Positions 4,365 through 44,995 of a stretch of 64,000 nucleotides of DNA are shown here, piece by piece (positions within the stretch are counted from its first letter, which is position 1; every line of letters begins with the position of its first letter). The DNA lies in the NCBI GenBank assembly GCA_944381075.1, contig CALWJT010000037.1, forward strand, positions 57,879 to 121,878, written 5' to 3'. Made by a program: the position numbers and the translations under genes. Under the pieces are notes generated by a model. It saw only the letters and a list, made by a program, of their open reading frames with translations. It was not told the origin of the DNA and did no database searches. The DNA comes from an uncultured Clostridia bacterium (lineage in GTDB: Bacteria; Bacillota; Clostridia; Oscillospirales; CAG-272).

Positions 4365-4657
4365 AGATATAAAATCAGGTCATACCGGCCGGGGAGTCAG
4401 CGGTGCCCTGTACCTGCAATCCGCTACAGCAGGGGTGGTTTCCCATTTTGAGGGATGATTTTGTGTGGTCTGCGCTGTATCTCCCCCGTGATGACGGGTG
4501 GGTCTCGTGCAATCGGCGGCTGTGAATCATGTCAGGCGGGGAACCGAGCAGCATTAAGCAGCTCAGCCGATGTGCCACGAGGCGGCCTGCCCCGAGCGGG
4601 GAATACGGCTTACGCATGGAGGATCTTCTCGATATTTGGGTGTATGGCCTGATTTTG
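4365..4657 (+). ncRNA. ffs: signal recognition particle RNA (large, Bacillus-type scRNA with Alu domain)
   Basis: Conserved domain IV core GTCAGGCGGGGAACCGAGCAGC...AAGCAGC...GATGTGCC at 4530-4578. A terminal helix pairs AAAATCAGGTCATACC (4371-86) with GGGTGTATGGCCTGATTTT (4638-56). No credible ORF. Sits directly upstream of dnaX-ybaB-recR, as in B. subtilis. Ends are approximate. Confidence 0.8.
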
Positions 4658-13299: not shown

Positions 13300-13583
13300 A
13301 TCATTTTTATGAAGTTTAAAAGCTGTGACCGGAAAGAGTAGGATATCGGAACGCGCATAGAGAGTTATCGGCAGGTGGAAGATAACCGCAAGTAGGATAT
13401 TTGAAGTACGCTCCGCGAGCTTTGCGCCGAACCGGCGGATACCGGACAAGGCGCAACGGGGAAGACCGTTATATCAAAAGCATGAAGCTTCATGCTTGCA
13501 GAGTCCGTATGCGCGAGCGTGCGGTAAAACAAGGTGGTAACGCGGATATTTCGCCCTCGTACAAGATGTGCGGGGGCGTTTTT
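13300..13583 (+). promoter_or_regulatory. T-box leader (tRNA-sensing transcription attenuator); specifier ambiguous, UAC (Tyr) is the best candidate
   Basis: Stem I base AAAGCT/AGCTTT, K-turn GTGA, AGAGAG bulge (13369-74), distal loop GGTGGAA, T-box motif AACAAGGTGGTAACGCGG (13528-45), terminator CGCCCTCG..CGGGGGCG+TTTTT (13552-83). The specifier-loop 3' side is UUUGAAGUACGC (13400-11). Confidence 0.85.
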
Positions 13584-22815: not shown

Positions 22816-23110
22816 TCAAAAAGTCGCCCCTGTGAAGAATCACAGGGACGACAAATTTCATCTGTTCGCGGTACCACCCCGATTACCGTCCAAAAGAACG
22901 GTCTCTCGATCCGATTCGGCGAGGAACTCATCCTCGTTTAAATCGGTGCAGCTGTAACGGGTGCGCCCGTAGCCTCCTACTTTCGTTTTTTCAGAGACTC
23001 CGCTCCGGAACGAGACTGTACCTGCTTCCGCCGCCGCCTGCTCTCACCGACCGCAGGCTCTCTGGATGCCGTAAAGCTGCACATAATTCCATCGTCGCGT
23101 TTTTGTATAC
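22816..23110 (-). promoter_or_regulatory. T-box leader, leucine specifier (CUC)
   Basis: On the minus strand: AGAGAG (23063-58), distal loop GGTGAGA, T-box motif AATCGGGGTGGTACCGCG (22884-67), terminator GTCGTCCCTGTG..CACAGGGGCGAC+TTTTT (22852-16). Specifier loop is ..ACAGU-CUC-G (CUC = 23014-12), followed by UUCC pairing with GGAA (23090-87). Confidence 0.85.
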
Positions 23111-24321: not shown

Positions 24322-24596
24322 TAACAAGCAAAAGCTGTGACGGAGAGGATCCGAATACGATGCTTTCAGAGAGCCGGTGGCAGGTGAGAACCGGCAGCGG
24401 AGGATTCAGGCGGTCTATCGCTCCCGAGCTGGAATCGTGAAAATCGCGTGCGATGAAGTAGCGCTTCCCGTGATTGCTGCGTCAAGGCATGGGACTTGTC
24501 GGAGTCCGAGAGGGGCGGTCAGATGGCCGCAATTTGAGTGGTACCGCGGATGTATATTTACACCCGTCTCAAAGAGATTGAGACGGGTGTTTTTTG
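24322..24596 (+). promoter_or_regulatory. T-box leader, isoleucine specifier (AUC)
   Basis: Base stem AGCT/AGCT, K-turn GTGA (24337-40), AGAGAG (24368-73), distal loop GGTGAGA, T-box motif AATTTGAGTGGTACCGCGG (24531-49), terminator ACACCCGTCTC..GAGACGGGTGT+TTTTTT (24560-96). Specifier loop is ..GGUCU-AUC-G (24417-20), then CUCC pairing with GGAG (24342-45). Confidence 0.85.
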
Positions 24597-39042: not shown

Positions 39043-39324
39043 AAATAAAAAAGCCCAAGCATCGAATCGATGCTTGGGACGAATTTCAAAAGAGAGAAAT
39101 CCGCGGTACCACCCAAATGAACTTGGTGTTCGCTCTGTTCGCATACCCATGATATGCGGCGCGCAGGATAACGGAAGCGCACTCCGTCGGAGCCTACTTG
39201 CGGTTGGCGTTCGGTCCGCCCTCAAAAGCCCATTCGCGTCCTTATACCTGCCGCAATCCCACCGCCTGCGGCTCTCTTGGAAGGAGAAGGGGACGTTACT
39301 CTTCTTTCTCAACGGTTTGGATTA
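39043..39324 (-). promoter_or_regulatory. T-box leader, tryptophan specifier (UGG)
   Basis: Minus strand: GAAGAGTA, AGAGAG (39278-73), distal loop GGTGGGA, specifier loop CGAA-UGG-G (UGG = 39232-30) flanked by helices CGTCC/GGACG and GAAAG/CTTTT, T-box motif CATTTGGGTGGTACCGCGG (39119-01), terminator CCCAAGCATCGA..TCGATGCTTGGG+TTTTTT (39080-43). Confidence 0.85.
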
Positions 39325-39452: not shown

Positions 39453-39863
39453 ATGAAAATTTCGACAAAAGGGCGTTACGCGATGCGCGTGATGCTGGAT
39501 CTCGCGGAAAACGGAAGCGCGGGCGGCTTCGTTTCGTTGAAGGAGATTTCAAAACGGCAGGAGATCTCCGTAAAATACCTGGAGCAGATCATCTCTCTTC
39601 TTTTGAAATGCGGCTATGTAGAAAGCTCCCGGGGAAGCGCGGGCGGATACCGGCTTACAAAAAAGCCGGAGGAATATACCTTCGGCGATATTCTTCGCGC
39701 GGCAGAGGGGAGCCTTGTACCTGTCTCCTGTGTGGAGGAAGCTTACTGCACACGATCGAACAAGTGCCGGATCTGTAAATACTGGAAGGGGCTTTACGCG
39801 GTGGTCAACCGGTATATCGACAGCATAACCCTTGCGGAAATCTTACGAAATACGCCATCCTGA
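39453..39863 (+). CDS. iscR: Rrf2-family transcriptional regulator, IscR-like with Cys ligand set
   Basis: MKISTKGRYAMRVMLDLA...SLKEIS.RQ.IS.KYLEQI...L.K.GYV.S.RG..GGY.L is Rrf2. C-x5-C-x5-C-x2-C (SCVEEAYCTRSNKCRIC) has the spacing of the IscR Fe-S ligands. Confidence 0.8.
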   Translation: MKISTKGRYAMRVMLDLAENGSAGGFVSLKEISKRQEISVKYLEQIISLLLKCGYVESSRGSAGGYRLTKKPEEYTFGDILRAAEGSLVPVSCVEEAYCTRSNKCRICKYWKGLYAVVNRYIDSITLAEILRNTPS

Positions 39864-39913
39864 GAGAAGCGCTGGCATGCTGTCTGAAAATTCGATTGAA
39901 AAGGAGGATGGGA

Positions 39914-41059
39914 ATGATTTATGCGGACAACGCCGCGACGACAAGACTTTCCGACGCGGCGAAGAAGGCGATGCTTCCGTATTATGACGTCCGGTACGGG
40001 AATCCGTCGAGTCTCCACACGGCGGGACGGGAGGCAAGGGCGGCGCTTGCGCAGGCAAGGGAAAAGGCGGCGGCGTGCATTGGCGCCTCCCCTTTGGAGC
40101 TTGTGTTTACCTCCGGCGGCAGCGAATCGGATTGTCAGGCGCTTATCACCGCCGCCGAATGGGGGAGACGGCAGGGAAAAAGACATTTTATTTCCTCCGC
40201 CATCGAGCACCATGCTGTTCTGCATACGCTGAAAAAGCTGGAACGGTATGGATTTTCGGTGACGCTCCTTCCCGTGGATAAGAGCGGGATCGTCACAGCG
40301 GAGGCGGTTCGGGCGGCGATTCGTCCGGATACGGCGGCAGCTTCGATCATGTATGCAAACAATGAGACCGGAACGGTGATGCCGGTTTCGGAGATTGGAG
40401 CGGTATGCCGGGAGGCCGGCGTTCTGTTTCACACCGATGCTGTTGCGGCGGCGGGGCATCTCCCCATTGATGTGAAGGCGCAGAACATCGATATGCTGTC
40501 CCTTTCCGCCCATAAATTCCATGGTCCGAAGGGTGTGGGAGCCTTCTATATAAGGGAAGGGATTCCCGCGGCATCGCTCATAGAGGGCGGTGCGCAGGAG
40601 GCGGGACGGCGTGCAGGGACAGAAAATGTTCCCGGCGTTGTCGGAATGGCAGAGGCATTGTCGGAAGCTTGTCTCCATATGGAAGCGAATGCGGCGTATG
40701 TCCGTTCGCTTCGGGATAAGCTGATAGAGGGATTGGCTTCTGTGCCGCGGAGCGTGCTCTGCGGGGATCGGCTGCGCAGACTGCCCGGAACTGTCAGCGT
40801 ATGCTTTGAGGGAATCGAGAGCGAAGCGCTTCTGCTGATGCTCGACGCGCAGGGGATCTGCGCGTCCTCTGGTTCCGCCTGCACGGCCGAGCTGCAAAAG
40901 TCCAGCCATGTGCTTCGAGCGATGGGCTTTTCGGACACAGAGGCGCGCGGCTCTCTGCGCCTGTCGCTTGACGAATACAACACGGAGGTGGAGATCGACC
41001 ATATTTTGGATGTGCTGCCGCGAGCCGTCGCGGCTCTAAGAAGGCTGTCTCCGGCTTGA
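39914..41059 (+). CDS. cysteine desulfurase (NifS/IscS type), copy 2
   Basis: MIYADNAATT..., SAHKFHGPKGVGAFY (PLP Lys), SSGSACT active-site loop. ATG 6 nt after AAAGGAGG; the track ORF starts at TTG 39896. Confidence 0.85.
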   Translation: MIYADNAATTRLSDAAKKAMLPYYDVRYGNPSSLHTAGREARAALAQAREKAAACIGASPLELVFTSGGSESDCQALITAAEWGRRQGKRHFISSAIEHHAVLHTLKKLERYGFSVTLLPVDKSGIVTAEAVRAAIRPDTAAASIMYANNETGTVMPVSEIGAVCREAGVLFHTDAVAAAGHLPIDVKAQNIDMLSLSAHKFHGPKGVGAFYIREGIPAASLIEGGAQEAGRRAGTENVPGVVGMAEALSEACLHMEANAAYVRSLRDKLIEGLASVPRSVLCGDRLRRLPGTVSVCFEGIESEALLLMLDAQGICASSGSACTAELQKSSHVLRAMGFSDTEARGSLRLSLDEYNTEVEIDHILDVLPRAVAALRRLSPA

Positions 41060-41198
41060 ACCGGAAGAGAAAGCTTTTCCAAAAGGATGGCATGGGGAAA
41101 GGGAAGCGCCGTGTCTGGTCTGCACTTGCTTGAAAAAATGGCAGATCTTGTTTTTTACCATATATCAATTCAAATCCTGAGAAAGAAGGCATGTGATC

Positions 41199-42131
41199 AT
41201 GAAAATTTATCAGTCCGTATCCGATCTTATTGGGCGCACACCGCTTCTCGAACTTGTCGGCTTAGAAAAAGCCTATCAGCTTCCGGCAAGGCTTTTCGGC
41301 AAGATGGAGTGCTTCAATCCGGCGGGGAGTGTCAAGGACCGCGTGGCGCTGGAAATGTTAGAGAGCGCCGAACATGCGGGAACGATTACGGGGGATTCTG
41401 TAATCATAGAGCCTACGAGCGGGAACACCGGAATCGGGCTTGCCGCGCTCGCCGCTTCCCGCGGGATGCGTGCCGTCATTGTGATGCCGGACAGCATGAG
41501 CCCGGAACGGATCGCGCTCATGCGGGCATATGGCGCCGAGGTGGTGTTGACGCCGGGGGCGCTCGGAATGCAGGGAGCCGTGGACCGCGCGCAGGCGCTC
41601 GCCGCGGAGCTCCCCGGAGGATGGATCGCCGGACAGTTTGTCAATCCGGCCAATCCCGCGGCGCATGAAAAGACGACGGGACCGGAAATCTATGAGGATA
41701 CAGAGGGGCGGGTCGATATTTTTGTCGCAGGCGTCGGCACCGGCGGGACCGTGACCGGTGTTGGCCGGTATTTAAAATCGCAAAAGCCGCAGGTGAAGGT
41801 CGTCGCCGTGGAGCCCGCATCCTCGCCGCTTCTGTCGAAGGGCCATGCCGGGCCGCACAAGCTCCAGGGGATCGGCGCGAACTTTGTTCCGGAAATCCTT
41901 GACAGGGAGATATACGATGAAATCCTTTGCGTGGAGGATGCGGACGCGATGCGGTGCGGGCGTGAAATCGCGCAGAAAGAGGGGATCCTTGTCGGAATTT
42001 CCTCCGGCGCCGCGGCTTTTGCCGCGATAGCGCTCGCCAAAAGGCCGGAAAACGCCGGCAAATGGATCGTCGCATTGCTGCCGGATTCCGGAGAACGGTA
42101 TCTTTCTACAGAAATGTTCCGAGACTCTTGA
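41199..42131 (+). CDS. cysK: cysteine synthase A (O-acetylserine sulfhydrylase)
   Basis: LIGRTPLLEL......LFGKMECFNPAGSVKDRVA (PLP Lys), EPTSGNTGIGLA, GVGTGGTVTGVG. ATG 41199 is preferred to the track's GTG 41193 on RBS spacing. Confidence 0.9.
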   Translation: MKIYQSVSDLIGRTPLLELVGLEKAYQLPARLFGKMECFNPAGSVKDRVALEMLESAEHAGTITGDSVIIEPTSGNTGIGLAALAASRGMRAVIVMPDSMSPERIALMRAYGAEVVLTPGALGMQGAVDRAQALAAELPGGWIAGQFVNPANPAAHEKTTGPEIYEDTEGRVDIFVAGVGTGGTVTGVGRYLKSQKPQVKVVAVEPASSPLLSKGHAGPHKLQGIGANFVPEILDREIYDEILCVEDADAMRCGREIAQKEGILVGISSGAAAFAAIALAKRPENAGKWIVALLPDSGERYLSTEMFRDS

Positions 42132-42215
42132 TTGTAAAATTTGTATAAAAATTCATAATACAACGTTGTATCCTGAGAAATATTGCATAAAATTTGAAAA
42201 AATTTTGAAAAAATC

Positions 42216-42244
42216 TTGACAGCGATGTGGACGGATGCTATAAT
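42216..42244 (+). promoter_or_regulatory. consensus sigma-A promoter of the metNIQ leader
   Basis: TTGACA (42216-21), 17 nt spacer, TATAAT (42239-44), preceded by an A/T-rich repeated TTTGAAAAAA (UP-like). Confidence 0.65.
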
Positions 42245-42288
42245 ACTGACAATCCCATGAGGAAATTTGTAAAAATTGGAGAACCAAG

Positions 42289-42402
42289 ATGGCAAGCGTA
42301 TTCATGATGATGGATATGATGATGTGCATGTCCCAGATGGACATGGACAGGATTTGTCATGCAGAAAACTCCAATTTGCTTTCCGGCAGAGAAACGGTAT
42401 AA
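42289..42402 (+). CDS. candidate Met-rich leader peptide (37 aa, 10 Met)
   Basis: GGAGA, 7 nt spacer, then ATG. Encodes MASVFMMMDMMMCMSQMDMDRICHAENSNLLSGRETV*, with all nine internal ATGs in one frame. Lies between the promoter and the terminator upstream of metN. Not in the track (under 60 aa). Confidence 0.45.
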   Translation: MASVFMMMDMMMCMSQMDMDRICHAENSNLLSGRETV

Positions 42403-42435
42403 CGGATTTCGGGAACCGAATCTTGAGATTTTTTG

Positions 42436-42473
42436 AGGCAGGAAACCATTTTGGTAGTCCTGCCTTACTTTTT
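42436..42473 (+). terminator. leader terminator/attenuator upstream of metN
   Basis: AGGCAGGA-14 nt-TCCTGCCT followed by TACTTTTTG. 30 nt before the metN start. Confidence 0.65.
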
Positions 42474-42503
42474 GTCATAGGAAAAGCGAAGGAGGTGCCT
42501 TGT

Positions 42504-43547
42504 TTGAGTGATGAAATCATTCGAGTAGAAGAGCTGAACAAAACCTTTACAGGCAAAAGCGGGACCATTGTGGCGCTGGACGGTGTAAATCTTTCCATCC
42601 GGCGCGGCGAGATCTTTGGTATCATCGGGCTTTCCGGTGCGGGAAAGAGCACGCTTGTCCGGTGCATCAATTTTCTGGAACGGCCGACCTCGGGCCGCGT
42701 CCTCTTTCAGGGTCGGGATCTTGCCGAGCTGAAGCCGCGCGAGCTTCTGCTTGCCAGGCAGTCGATGGGAATGATCTTTCAGGGCTTTAATCTGCTGTCT
42801 CAAAGAAATGCCCTGCAAAACATCTGCTTCCCGATGGAAATCGCCGGCGTACCCAGAGCGGATGCGAAAAAACGGGCGAATGAGCTTCTGGAGCTGGTCG
42901 GGCTTTCCGATCGGGCGGATGCCTATCCGTCGCAGATGTCGGGCGGACAGAAGCAGCGGATTGCGATTGCCCGGGCGCTGTCTACCAGTCCGAGCGTTCT
43001 CCTTTGCGACGAGGCGACGAGCGCTCTGGACCCGAATACGACAAGGCAGATCCTGGAGCTTTTAAAGCATATCAACAAAGCGCTTGGCATCACGGTGGTG
43101 ATGATAACGCATGAAATGAAGGTCATCGAGACCATATGCAACCGTGTGGCGGTAATCGATGAAAGCCATATCGTCGAGATGGGAGAGGTAAAGGACATTT
43201 TCATTCGTCCTCAGTCGAAAATCGCAAAGCAGCTGATTTTTCCGCAGGGGGATGATGCGCCGAATATCTCCAAGGCAGGGAAGCGCTCCCTTCGGCTTGT
43301 GTTTGACGGGACATCCGCTTTTGAGCCGATTATTTCTCAGATGACGCTGGACTGTCGGGCCGCGGTTAATATCCTTGCCGCCAATACGAAAAACGTGGAT
43401 GGAAAAACCTATGGACAGATGGTCATCCAGCTTCCGGAGGATGAGGTTTCCGCCGCAAGGATTGAGGCTTATCTGAAAGACCGGAGCATATTCTTTAAAG
43501 AGGAGGTGCCGGAGAATGCTGAATGCGATACTGGTCGGTATTCTTGA
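42504..43547 (+). CDS. metN: methionine ABC transporter ATP-binding protein (with C-terminal NIL domain)
   Basis: TTG start 8 nt after AAGGAGG. IRVEELNKTF, GLSGAGKSTL, MSGGQKQRIAIARAL, LLCDEATSALDP. C-terminal NIL-like LRLVFDG....PIISQM. The track ORF (42276) includes the leader. Confidence 0.9.
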   Translation: MSDEIIRVEELNKTFTGKSGTIVALDGVNLSIRRGEIFGIIGLSGAGKSTLVRCINFLERPTSGRVLFQGRDLAELKPRELLLARQSMGMIFQGFNLLSQRNALQNICFPMEIAGVPRADAKKRANELLELVGLSDRADAYPSQMSGGQKQRIAIARALSTSPSVLLCDEATSALDPNTTRQILELLKHINKALGITVVMITHEMKVIETICNRVAVIDESHIVEMGEVKDIFIRPQSKIAKQLIFPQGDDAPNISKAGKRSLRLVFDGTSAFEPIISQMTLDCRAAVNILAANTKNVDGKTYGQMVIQLPEDEVSAARIEAYLKDRSIFFKEEVPENAECDTGRYS

Positions 43548-44163
43548 AACCGTTTATATGACAGTGGTGTCTACTATTTTTGCATATGTGATTGGCTTGC
43601 CGCTCGGCGTCATTCTCTATGTAACGGATAAGGGAGGCACGCATCCGATTTTGTGGCTGAACCGGGTAATCGGCTTCATCGTCAATTTTCTCAGAAGCGT
43701 ACCTTTTATCATTCTTCTGGTCTGGGTCATGCCGATCACCCGAGCGATCGTCGGAACCACGATCGGTTCCACGGCGGTTATTGTCCCGCTCGTGATTGCG
43801 GCGGCGCCTTTTATCGCGCGCATGGTGGAATCCTCGCTCAAGGAGGTGGACCTTGGGATCATTGAAGCAGCGCAGTCTATGGGGGCCTCCTCTTTCCAGC
43901 TGATTTACAAGGTTCTGATTCCGGAGGCGAAGCCCTCGCTGCTCGTGGGCAGCGCGATCGCCATTACGACGATCCTCGGATATTCCGCTTTGGCGGGGAC
44001 CGTAGGCGGCGGCGGTCTCGGTGCGCTTGCGTATAACTATGGTTATATCCGCAGAGATGAAGATGTGCTTCTGGTGACAGTCATCCTGCTTGTCATCGTG
44101 GTGCAGATTTTTCAGGAGGTCGGCATGCTTATTGCAAAGAAGGCCGATAAACGAGTCAAATAA
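43516..44163 (+). CDS. metI: methionine ABC transporter permease
   Basis: 215 aa, 5 TM, ...RSVPFIILLVWVMPITR.IVGT.IG..A.IVPL... is typical of MetI. Confidence 0.9.
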   Translation: MLNAILVGILETVYMTVVSTIFAYVIGLPLGVILYVTDKGGTHPILWLNRVIGFIVNFLRSVPFIILLVWVMPITRAIVGTTIGSTAVIVPLVIAAAPFIARMVESSLKEVDLGIIEAAQSMGASSFQLIYKVLIPEAKPSLLVGSAIAITTILGYSALAGTVGGGGLGALAYNYGYIRRDEDVLLVTVILLVIVVQIFQEVGMLIAKKADKRVK

Positions 44164-44191
44164 AATTTTTATATAAAAAGGAGATCCATTT

Positions 44192-44995
44192 ATGAAAAAA
44201 ATCCTCTCAACCCTGCTTGCTTTGGCGCTTGTATTTTCCGCTCTGGCATTTGCCTCCTGCGGAAAAACTGACGACAAAACCATCCGCGTCGGCGCATCGC
44301 CTTCGCCTCATGCTGAGATCCTTGCGGTCGCTAAGGATATCCTTGCCGAACAGGGCTATACGCTGGAGATCGTAGAGTTCAACGACTATATCATTCCGAA
44401 CAATTCGGTCGAAAGCGGAGAGCTGGATGCGAATTATTTTCAGCATCAGCCGTATCTGGACAGCTTTAACAGCGAGAACGGAACGCATCTGGTCTCCGTG
44501 CTGGACGTCCATTATGAGCCGCTTGGCATCTATGCCGGAAAAACTTCGTCCCTTGCGGAGCTGCCGGACGGCGCGACCATTGCGATCCCGAATGATACGA
44601 GCAACGAAGCGAGAGCGCTCCTGCTTCTGGAGGCAAACGGCCTTATCACGCTGAAGGAGGGCGCGGGACTGAACGCTACGGTGCTGGATATCGAGAGCAA
44701 TCCGCACGGCTATGAGATCAAGGAGCTTGTCGCTGAACAGATCCCCGTATCGCTTCCCGACGTCGATATCGCTGTCATCAACGGGAACTACGCGCTGACC
44801 AACGAGCTTGGTGAGGCACTTGTCTATGAAAGTGCGGAATCCGATGCCGCTGAAACGTATATCAACGTTCTGGTGGTGAAAGAGGGCAATGAGAACCTTG
44901 ACAAGATCCAAGCACTTGTGGAGGCACTCAGCAGCGATGAAGTAAGAGATTATATTGTCGATACCTATGGGGAGGCGGTCGTTCCGGTGTTTTGA
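44192..44995 (+). CDS. metQ: methionine-binding lipoprotein (NlpA/MetQ family)
   Basis: Lipobox LAFASCGK. IRVGASPSPHAEIL, FNDY..PN.....ELDANYFQH.PYL. Confidence 0.9.
   Translation: MKKILSTLLALALVFSALAFASCGKTDDKTIRVGASPSPHAEILAVAKDILAEQGYTLEIVEFNDYIIPNNSVESGELDANYFQHQPYLDSFNSENGTHLVSVLDVHYEPLGIYAGKTSSLAELPDGATIAIPNDTSNEARALLLLEANGLITLKEGAGLNATVLDIESNPHGYEIKELVAEQIPVSLPDVDIAVINGNYALTNELGEALVYESAESDAAETYINVLVVKEGNENLDKIQALVEALSSDEVRDYIVDTYGEAVVPVF

Follow-up and report, generated by a model that had tools for sequence, protein, structure and literature searches.

Textbook accounts of methionine regulation in Gram-positive bacteria centre on S-box riboswitches, Met-specific T-boxes and regulatory proteins. 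Attenuation by leader peptides is established for His, Trp, Leu, Thr, Phe and Ile/Val and, in actinobacteria, for Cys. The only precedent for a Met leader-peptide attenuator that we found in the openly accessible literature is ‘metL’, a leader peptide (MSTTSDRTPATEATTTPGARCMCRRMCAF) with Met and Cys codons that lies immediately before metNIQ in Streptomyces lividans TK24 (PMC8079986). This is a putative annotation, presented by its authors without functional test or comparative analysis, and it concerns an actinobacterial leaderless transcript with three internal Met codons and no typical intrinsic terminator seen (PMC8079986). In Bacilli, His leader peptides are found upstream of hisS/hisZ paralogs (Naville and Gautheret 2010, PMC2965389). 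Furthermore, polycysteine leaderless short ORFs of mycobacteria are Cys-responsive attenuators (bioRxiv 10.1101/834739), and candidate Cys leaders have been listed (Seliverstov 2005, PMC1262725).

We analysed the leader of a metNIQ importer operon within a 64 kb stretch of DNA (the window, to which all coordinates refer; every feature described lies on the + strand). Judged from its sequence and from modelled folds, this element is very probably a leader-peptide transcription attenuator that senses charged elongator Met-tRNA and controls the importer. A sequence-only reading of the locus had proposed a Met attenuator of this kind, and each attempt at refutation that could be run turned out in its favour. 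The same reading knew of no described Met version, which is essentially so, the putative S. lividans metL annotation excepted (PMC8079986). Most likely the element is a ribosome-attenuation theme known elsewhere, here with methionine and essentially undescribed before.

The promoter, leader ORF, terminator, repeats and complementary segments named in that reading are all in place. Transcription is driven by a strong sigma-70 promoter (42216..42244), with TTGACA at 42216-21, a 17-nt spacer and TATAAT at 42239-44; besides the TTGACA-17-TATAAT already recognized, which scores 12/12, there is an extended -10 TG at 42236-37. Both hexamers are conserved in all aligned relatives. With transcription probably starting around 42251, the leader RNA is about 225 nt long, and its folding beats 200/200 dinucleotide shuffles (z = -4.2). 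Alignment and folds place a small 5′ hairpin, TCC-CATGA-GGA (TCCCGAAAGGGA in close relatives), at 42254..42263; it occurs in the window subgroup only and is possibly a 5′ stabiliser. One or more spacer hairpins (42404..42433), supported by covariation and folds, separate the leader stop codon from the terminator. The spacer stem AATCT/AGATT covaries in relatives to GAATC/GATTC, AAATC/GATTT and GATCC/GGATT.

The hairpin and U-tract that had been noted before the metN RBS were confirmed as an intrinsic terminator (42435..42476), identified by folding probability and compensatory changes. It comprises a 5′ arm GAGGCAGGA (42435-43), an inner stem ACC/GGT and a 3′ arm TCCTGCCTT (42458-66), followed by ACTTTTTGT, and sits about 30 nt upstream of metN. 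A simple terminator scanner makes no call here (loop >8 nt) and folding was used instead; in full-length folds (ViennaRNA) the terminator formed with probability >0.98. Two compensatory pairs, GGCAGGA/TCCTGCC to GACGGGA/TCCCGTC, are present in 4/9 sequences, and a terminator was seen in 28/28 family leaders folded (at least 18 among those listed). The regulated operon, metN-metI-metQ (42490..44995), was assigned with Pfam: metN (SD AGGAGG 42490-95, TTG 42504 to 43547; ABC_tran+NIL), metI (43516-44163; BPD_transp_1) and metQ (NlpA; 44192-44995; Lipoprotein_9). The true metN start is most likely TTG 42504, after AGGAGG. No promoter-like site was found between the terminator and metN.

The leader ORF (42289..42402), supported by ORF calling and conservation, has 37 codons, ten of them Met, and ends in a TAA stop at 42400-02; it encodes MASVFMMMDMMMCMSQMDMDRICHAENSNLLSGRETV. 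Its ATG at 42289 follows an SD, GGAG (42278-81), after a 7 nt gap. Codon count and alignment delimit a regulatory run of Met codons (codons 6-8, 10-12, 14, 17 and 19; 42304..42345), in which nine ATG fall within 14 stop-free codons (binomial P ∼1e-13), so that the SD-led, Met-rich 37-codon ORF reported earlier is both real and far from a chance occurrence. Across all six frames of the 64 kb, this run is the sole site with at least five ATG per 14 codons, the next-best count outside the leader ORF, among 90,884 windows, being four.

Closer relatives were gathered by protein search and contig look-ups. The same layout is found in about 40 leaders from relatives and metagenomes, with the SD and start codon kept and, despite their diversity, no in-frame stops. 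The DNA pattern of the Met run alone retrieved 28 short SD-led ORFs from metagenomes; in 25/25 of the retrieved leaders with enough downstream DNA, a terminator and then metNIQ or metQNI followed. In an alignment of nine close, non-redundant leaders no Met column varies, the intervening codons encode three to six different amino acids, and the indel following codon 5 measures either 0 or 3 nt throughout (none, ACC, TCG, AAA or GTT). Met makes up 26% of the residues across 26 leader peptides, and the C-terminus and length of the peptide vary among relatives. A peptide-profile search with the 45-aa extended ORF recovered close relatives only. The more distant metN loci L002, L003, L005 and L013 carry unrelated Met-rich ORFs in the same place. 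The invariant Met codons, the indels in multiples of three and the kept SD and start support translation of the leader ORF, with selection apparently retaining Met codons and frame, not the peptide. Conservation of a Met-rich ORF in orthologous leaders, on which the sequence-only reading had staked its case, is thus seen at the level of Met codons and reading frame, and by its sequence the element is conserved in many uncultured Clostridia.

These data bear on whether the ORF encodes a functional Met/Cys-rich micropeptide (metal binding, a MetNIQ modulator or a Met reserve), which we consider very unlikely. The ORF would then be the first gene of the operon, co-transcribed with the rest across a hairpin acting as a leaky terminator, an arrangement to which we give an equally slim chance. 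Gene calling does pick up the peptide on many contigs (peptide P0121, identical to that of the window, on 67 public contigs), and an M-[AT]-N-V-F N-terminus, MCxFCH and RAQK..[FI][IV]SD recur within subfamilies; Met-rich and Cys-rich motifs are, moreover, able to bind Cu(I). However, the residues between the Met are hypervariable (C/D/N/R/S/Y at one column), as are length and C-terminus variable, and the C-terminal ‘motifs’ show conservation down to third codon positions together with complementarity to the RBS or the Met run, indicating that the constraint acts on the RNA. Orthologs, moreover, hold a T-box or S-box at the same slot. The peptide also lacks a recognizable family or export signal: with six representative leader peptides, NCBIfam profiles gave no family at E ≤ 1 and Pfam one chance-level match (E = 0.095) and no family, and neither a signal peptide nor a transmembrane segment was found. 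The heme-like CxxCH motif of some peptides is absent from the peptide of the window and lies within the RNA-constrained block, and was rejected as meaningful.

Within the Met run, the hairpin previously pointed out is present, formed by CATGTCC (42327-33) and GGACATG (42339-45), and it recurs across the family as AUGUGCAUG..CAUGYGCAU. Cys codons straight after a Met codon are TGC in 51/51 cases, followed by A in 45/51, against TGT 16 and TGC 9 for Cys codons elsewhere in the leader peptides and a background TGC usage of 70%. This TGC-A bias points to a nucleotide-level constraint within the Met run. The Cys codons themselves vary (C/Y, C/D/G) and look partly structural.

Such a recurrent hairpin, the TGC-A bias and the far better folding of the leader than of its shuffles would also fit an unrecognised SAM/Met riboswitch or the target of an RNA-binding protein, with a structural AUG segment and an incidental ORF. 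To this we give little chance, given that the ATGs share one frame (ten of those in the leader ORF in frame 0, one out of frame), that indels preserve this frame, and that SD and start are kept, correctly spaced, in leaders free of in-frame stops; moreover, no covarying partner accompanies the variation between the ATGs, and there is no conserved multi-helix junction of the kind typical of aptamers. Likewise, no Rfam family matched the leader at gathering score, the E-value mode returning only junk snoRNA/lncRNA (best E = 0.056). SAM/SAH riboswitch models, including RF00162, gave no match on 42100-42560 even at E ≤ 10, and the T-box model RF00230 gave no match in the leader. The same search did detect the T-boxes of L087 and L088 and four at other sites in the window, as well as SAM-I upstream of metN in L016 and L017. 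Both Rfam modes found nothing relevant on leader-ORF loci (20 related loci searched). The absence of an S-box core and of a T-box motif, as first read by eye, is therefore borne out by Rfam, and a known riboswitch covering the leader is excluded as tested.

The slot upstream of metN is occupied differently in orthologs. L087 and L088 (MetN 68-71% identity) and L008-L012 carry a T-box with an AUG specifier there, and Desulfosporosinus carries SAM-I. As MetN orthologs at equal divergence hold a Met T-box or S-box at this position, it is a Met-regulatory slot. Bacterial arrest peptides governing downstream genes are known, and some peptide conservation within subfamilies (MMM[CY]M and M-C-M) could be taken as a sign of TnaC/SpeFL-like nascent-peptide arrest triggered by free Met, SAM or a metal as the small-molecule signal, in place of Met-tRNA shortage. 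We regard this as extremely unlikely: arrest requires specific residues, yet those between the Met are hypervariable; an importer induced by an excess of its own substrate is illogical; and the tRNA-sensing T-boxes that replace the element in orthologs point to tRNA charging as the signal.

For the attenuator that we favour, alternative RNA pairings were sought in the leader. Region 1 (42273..42296) is the leader RBS, AAATTGGAG including the SD, followed by ATGGCAAG from the start codon, and it pairs with 42353-42377. Its partner, region 2 (42353..42384), identified by alignment and folds, is the nucleotide-conserved 3′ block of the ORF, TTTGTCATGCAGAAAACTCCAATTTGCTTTCC, which is invariant even at third codon positions. 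The complementarity first noticed between AAATTGGAG (42273-81) and CTCCAATTT (42369-77) is part of this larger conserved RBS:ORF-3′ helix, for which the RNAalifold consensus is SD:CTCC plus ATGRCAAR:YTTGTYAT. In the window the duplex has -17.9 kcal/mol, compared with -11.5 for shuffles (p = 0.02), and dinucleotide shuffles are beaten at p < 0.05 in 17/30 leaders, where about 1.5 would be expected. L086 shows a compensatory GGGAG:CTCCC in the region 1:2 helix. In the single-sequence MFE of the window this helix is not the top structure; that MFE also shows region 2 paired with the metN SD, an interaction that is not conserved and was dropped. The 1:2 pairing is predicted to sequester the whole leader RBS in a conserved helix and, as is characteristic of an attenuator, to tie up the antiterminator strand unless a ribosome is stalled. 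One subfamily uses the Met run itself as region 1, with GGAUAUGA pairing to UCAUAUCC at the ORF end, a placement exactly as in the trp leader; there, the helix GGAUAUGA:UCRUAUCC carries a compensatory GGAG:CUCC change.

Antitermination was analysed on transcripts ending before the terminator 3′ arm. A candidate antiterminator strand, CCAATTTGCTTTCC (42371-84), can pair with GGAAACCATTTTGG (42441-54), that is, the terminator 5′ arm and loop. With a ribosome in the Met run and the 3′ arm unmade, this helix is the MFE in 8/8 close homologs; RNAalifold arrives at it as the consensus too, and it is predicted for most other leaders. With the ribosome stalled, the terminator 5′ arm is predicted in most leaders to pair with the final ∼20 nt of the ORF, which a terminating ribosome would mask, its partners being confined to at most 22 nt upstream of the stop in 23/26 leaders; the median probability of 5′ arm capture is 0.79 when stalled, 0.49 with no ribosome and 0.29 with a ribosome at the stop. 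Shuffled upstream sequence captures the 5′ arm equally well in a median of 14.5% of shuffles. Within the close family the two strands hardly vary. With almost no covariation and a weakly significant shuffle control, the folds are suggestive of the antiterminator and support it weakly. For the window subgroup, the distance from region 2 to the downstream stop is 16-29 nt, which places it only at the edge of the footprint of a terminating ribosome. The near-repeat of GGCAGGAAAC (42437-46), the terminator 5′ arm, at GGCAGAGAAAC (42385-95), also described earlier, is present; its conservation is limited to the closest relatives, and it was given no role in the model.

In equilibrium folds of the full leader the terminator has P > 0.98 under every ribosome mask. 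A purely thermodynamic switch was rejected on this ground, and the switch must be kinetic. In the folding check with a ribosome footprint, proposed in the sequence-only reading, the terminator prevailed in all full-length states and the antiterminator was predicted in truncated transcripts.

The locus has the features of an attenuator, namely an SD-led leader ORF, conserved enrichment in the cognate codon and a terminator with no later promoter, and may work as follows. A ribosome would load on the leader as soon as the RNA is made. With ample Met-tRNA it would reach the stop, and region 2 would be covered by it or recaptured by region 1, so that regions 3 and 4, the terminator arms, could pair and halt transcription before metN. 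When Met-tRNA is scarce, the ribosome would stall in the Met run, in the loop between regions 1 and 2, and region 1 would be masked by the stalled ribosome or by one queued behind it. The free region 2 would pair with the emerging terminator 5′ arm and loop, the terminator would not form, and metNIQ would be transcribed. Without any translation, the 1:2 helix should form and termination would be the default. Two points weigh on this model. Stalls at later Met codons would leave region 1 uncovered, such that the model must invoke steric exclusion or a second ribosome queued behind the first; and under severe Met starvation fMet-tRNA, and with it initiation, would become limiting too, leading in this model to termination, which counts against it.

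A broader reading joins several further proposals, and taken together we find them doubtful. These are a widespread, uncatalogued class of Met-sensing attenuators in uncultured gut and rumen Clostridia; a disome-type read-out, in which the RBS as region 1 would make read-through dependent on a stalled plus a queued ribosome; AUG-UGC-A units that would form a pause or structure hairpin and at the same time provide a second input (Cys), giving multivalent sulfur amino-acid sensing; and kinship with the Streptomyces ‘metL’ ORF, which would make the system ancient across Gram-positive phyla.

If the attenuator reading holds, a conserved Met-codon attenuator would add a ribosome-based solution as the third one for this operon, and close orthologs would offer a clean natural case in which T-box, S-box and leader peptide replace one another. 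Annotation of many metagenome-derived Clostridia, in which the ORF is now missed or called a hypothetical protein, would also improve, and synthetic biology would gain a compact sensor of Met-tRNA charging.

Compared with described systems, the Met leader shares with the polycysteine ORFs a short, upstream, sulfur-amino-acid-rich ORF, an association with sulfur-metabolism operons and, as proposed here, the use of ribosome stalling; the polycysteine ORFs differ in sensing Cys, in being leaderless and in having no intrinsic terminator. The metL core CMCRRMC resembles, by eye only, MCMRRMCM of the leaders L106, L112 and L136. The His leaders of Bacilli are regular Firmicutes attenuators that replace T-boxes at syntenic positions, but with a different amino acid, different genes and unrelated sequence (PMC2965389). 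The Met T-box and SAM-I leaders of Firmicutes occupy the same slot before the same metNIQ operon and their output is likewise control over an intrinsic terminator; the Met T-box reads tRNA-Met charging, like the proposed leader. However, T-boxes and S-boxes are protein-free RNA sensors with conserved cores; here there is no such core, and the ribosome would be the sensor.

The classical attenuators of E. coli and Salmonella (trpL, hisL, leuL, thrL, pheL and ilvL) have no sequence similarity to the Met leader, which matches no Rfam or NCBIfam family and differs from them in its predicted sensing of methionine, in targeting an importer and not a biosynthetic operon, and in its clostridial hosts. 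Nevertheless, they likewise have an SD-led ORF rich in cognate codons and a terminator before the first structural gene; and, as predicted here for the Met leader, termination is their default without translation, their 1:2, 2:3 and 3:4 pairings are exclusive and region 2 lies at or near the leader stop. Unlike the classical arrangement, region 1 in the window subfamily would be the leader's own SD and start codon, with the Met run in the 1:2 loop, and this use of its own RBS as the anti-antiterminator strand would be a twist on the trp paradigm.

Directly 5' of the leader promoter lies a sulfur-metabolism cluster (39453-42131) encoding an Rrf2 regulator, a class-V aminotransferase/cysteine desulfurase and CysK (PALP); at one related locus (L082) a NifU gene replaces cysK. 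An AT-rich spacer of 85 nt separates the cluster from a perfect extended sigma-70 promoter (TTGACA 42216-21, TG 42236-37, TATAAT 42239-44; score 12/12), which is followed on the same, forward strand by a Shine-Dalgarno (SD) sequence (GGAG, 42278-81) and a 37-codon ORF, MASVFMMMDMMMCMSQMDMDRICHAENSNLLSGRETV (ATG at 42289, stop TAA at 42400-02). The intrinsic terminator pairs a 5' arm, GAGGCAGGA (42435-43), with a 3' arm, TCCTGCCTT (42458-66), around an inner ACC/GGT stem and ends in ACTTTTTGT. The metN SD, AGGAGG, lies at 42490-95 (forward strand), the most plausible metN start is TTG at 42504, and the genes that follow encode MetN (ABC_tran and NIL), MetI and MetQ (NlpA). A promoter scan gave no promoter-like site between the terminator and metN, and the leader fold was better than 200 of 200 shuffles (z = -4.2).

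All the elements that the sequence-only reading had listed in this leader were recovered in their places. The near-repeat of the terminator 5' arm (42437-42446) that it pointed to, GGCAGAGAAAC (42385-42395), is present and is conserved in the nearest relatives only, as is a second repeat, TTTTGTCATA 3' of the terminator (42470-42479), matching TTTGTCAT of region 2 (the ORF 3' block) at 42351-42360. A small 5'-terminal hairpin of TCCC-GAAA-GGGA type (42254-42263) directly after the inferred transcription start also occurs in three related leaders of the window's subgroup (L081, L082 and L097).

Nine ATG codons occupy a single 14-codon stretch, the sole locus with at least five among 90,884 stop-free 14-codon windows in six frames (binomial P ~1e-13). 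Of the 11 ATG triplets inside the ORF, 10 are in frame. The Met cluster is not due to chance.

The leader falls outside the S-box, the T-box and every curated leader family. The absence of a known RNA element was borne out by Rfam, which at gathering thresholds across the whole window reported nothing in the leader, and a permissive search of 42100-42560 returned snoRNA/lncRNA noise only. For six representative leader peptides there was no NCBIfam family, and the sole Pfam match was at chance level (E = 0.095). Elsewhere in the 64 kb, Rfam gathering scores were reached by a large SRP RNA (4380-4647, forward strand) and four T-box leaders, at 13316-13561 and 24328-24574 on the forward strand and 22841-23104 and 39072-39321 on the reverse strand. 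The genome therefore uses T-boxes freely, yet metNIQ has a leader peptide.

Relatives were collected by gathering MetN homologs, fetching their contigs and then searching with a leader-peptide profile. The profile matched an identical peptide on 67 public contigs and, besides, five relatives. Nine non-redundant leaders, alignable end to end (MetN 71-98% identical), constitute the close family. All nine keep the promoter hexamers, the SD and the ATG; of the Met columns, six are invariant and a further three nearly so, whereas the codons between them are hypervariable (C/D/N/R/S/Y, D/G/Q/R, D/I/L/V, C/D/G, K/R/S/T). The sole indel in the 5' half of the ORF is of 0 or 3 nt (none, ACC, TCG, AAA, GTT), so the reading frame is maintained, and Thr codon 2 varies synonymously (ACG, ACA, ACT). 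The 3' block of the ORF, TTTGTCATGCARAAAACTCCAAWTYGCTTTCY, is kept even at third codon positions, a pattern that indicates constraint at the RNA level. Absence of conservation in orthologous leaders, which would have refuted the sequence-only reading, is thus not what was observed; what is conserved is the Met codons and the frame, not the peptide.

The kept frame, with indels in multiples of three, the conserved SD and start and the lack of an aptamer-like core argue against a riboswitch or protein-binding RNA in which the ORF would be incidental. A functional micropeptide is likewise disfavoured, as residues other than Met are hypervariable, its C-terminus varies, the peptide 'motifs' are conserved at the RNA level and orthologs hold a T-box or S-box in the same slot.

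Beyond the close family, distant metN loci (L002, L003, L005 and L013; MetN 54-64%) carry different Met-rich ORFs, e.g. MTTNKKMMMVMGMMGMCMCSQNIT, with a consensus promoter 5' and a terminator 3'. A metagenome scan with a DNA pattern for the Met run alone gave 39 loci, 28 of them SD-led ORFs of 26-41 codons, e.g. MKSFSFAMMDMMMCMCSMRMMTRAQKCGPSCIVS; in 25 of the 25 loci with enough downstream DNA, a terminator and then metNIQ or metQNI followed. The remaining 11 matches were long low-complexity ORFs and were taken as chance. In metQNI-type operons behind such leaders the MetQ/NlpA lipoprotein appears circularly permuted by tblastn and ORF analysis (L101, 2596-3459; also L106, L112, L119, L121, L128, L131, L135 and L136), its N-terminal half matching residues ~127-264, and its C-terminal half residues ~30-121, of MetQ in the window. 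The closest metN locus among the GTDB-representative matches listed (L001, ~1170-1320; Acutalibacteraceae, 65% MetN identity) has, before metN, a promoter of consensus type, an ORF of three codons (ATGGTAGTGTAA) and a hairpin resembling a terminator (GTCGTCC..GGACGGT, with a T-tract). Its leader holds neither a Met run nor a T-box, and may be a degenerate remnant or under different control.

Two orthologs, L087 (71% MetN identity) and L088 (68%), whose divergence is that of the leader-bearing L083 and L086, have a T-box at the leader position, as do the Oscillospiraceae loci L008-L012, while Desulfosporosinus L016 and L017 have a SAM-I element there. The specifier, GAA-N-AUG-G, reads Met in the printed alignments of L087, L088 and L012, and by eye in L008 and L011. 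With different regulators at one position in MetN orthologs, the slot is thus methionine-regulatory. In sister lineages a sensor of tRNA-Met charging occupies it, and among the indirect arguments on the signal read by the Met-codon ORF this is the strongest.

Support for the terminator comes from compensatory change at two pairs (GGCAGGA/TCCTGCC to GACGGGA/TCCCGTC). In the close family, RNAalifold pairs the leader ribosome-binding site (region 1) with the ORF 3' block (region 2, 42353-84), SD GGAG with CUCC (42369-72) and the start-codon segment AUGRCAAR with YUUGUYAU (42353-60), in a 1:2 helix that encloses the Met run and shows a compensatory change in L086 (GGGAG:CUCCC). The corresponding duplex beat dinucleotide shuffles (p < 0.05) in 17 of 30 highly divergent leaders (median p 0.03). 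The helix is missing from the window's single-sequence minimum free energy (MFE) fold, although the window's duplex is significant against shuffles. The RAQK..ISD subfamily differs in that its consensus helix pairs the Met run (GGAUAUGA) with the ORF end (UCRUAUCC), with a compensatory GGAG:CUCC in L116, a classical trp-like layout. A second subgroup lacks the 5'-terminal hairpin, and AGAAAG there pairs with CUUUCU of region 2.

For the stalled state, transcripts that end just before the terminator 3' arm were folded after deletion of the sequence up to a stalled ribosome within the Met run. The MFE structure then contained a candidate antiterminator, CCAA(A)U..GCUUUCY (42371-84) paired with GGAAACCAUUUUGG (42441-54), the terminator 5' arm plus loop, in 8 of 8 close homologs, and the wider family behaved in the same way. 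In most leaders the 5' arm has its partner in the last ~20 nt of the ORF (in 23 of 26, confined to the 22 nt preceding the stop codon), where a terminating ribosome would cover it; in 16 of 26 this partner overlaps or adjoins that of the ribosome-binding site. Median probabilities of 5' arm capture were 0.79 when stalled, 0.49 with no ribosome and 0.29 with a ribosome at the stop; in a median 14.5% of trials, shuffled upstream sequence was no worse than the native sequence at capturing the arm. Both strands of the candidate antiterminator are almost constant across the close family, making covariation uninformative. In the window's subgroup, 16-29 nt separate region 2 from the stop, which places it just at the margin of the terminating ribosome's footprint. 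Full-length equilibrium folds gave a terminator probability above 0.98 under every ribosome mask, so the switch must be kinetic, as in the trp attenuator.

In the proposed mechanism, ample Met-tRNA would bring the ribosome to the stop, region 2 would be masked or would pair again with region 1, and the terminator (arms 3 and 4) would form. When Met-tRNA is scarce, the ribosome would stall in the loop, this ribosome or one queued behind it would mask region 1, and region 2 would pair with region 3, allowing read-through into metNIQ; no translation would lead to termination. Regulatory logic and the variable non-Met residues both disfavour a TnaC-like arrest peptide. Weak points of the attenuation model are that stalls at late Met codons would not cover region 1 directly, and that Met is needed for initiation too.

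Cys is the third most frequent residue in the leader peptides (8.6%), in columns that are not invariant (C/Y, C/D/G). All 51 Cys codons directly after a Met codon are TGC (the search pattern forced about half of these), with A next in 45 of 51; TGT predominates among the other Cys codons (16 vs 9), and background TGC usage is 70%. The ATG-TGC-A unit recurs in the window (42311-42345) and in the Met runs of L099-L136, its AUGUGCAUG form giving a recurrent hairpin inside the run (AUGUGCAUG..CAUGYGCAU), which amounts to a nucleotide-level constraint within the coding run. With the TGC-A bias and this hairpin, the Cys codons of the run are therefore read as at least partly structural, perhaps forming a pause hairpin; the leader could conceivably co-sense Cys.

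Five of the six defining features of a leader-peptide attenuator that can be examined in silico were found, together with a candidate for the sixth, the antiterminator. The comparative evidence favours the attenuator originally proposed, and the leader probably belongs to this mechanism class. Leader peptides for His are known to replace T-boxes in Firmicutes (PMC2965389), and actinobacteria provide known cases of upstream ORFs rich in Cys (PMC1262725; bioRxiv 10.1101/834739). For Met operons of Actinobacteria, Seliverstov et al. explicitly reported no RNA regulation (PMC1262725). The literature searched, which did not extend to subscription-only papers, held one Met precedent, 'metL' 5' of metNIQ in Streptomyces lividans, a one-line annotation without functional test (peptide ...ARCMCRRMCAF) and with no typical terminator (PMC8079986). 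Its core resembles the MCMRRMCM of some leaders here. New here are the amino-acid specificity (Met) and a sizeable family in uncultured Clostridia; region 1 is unusual.
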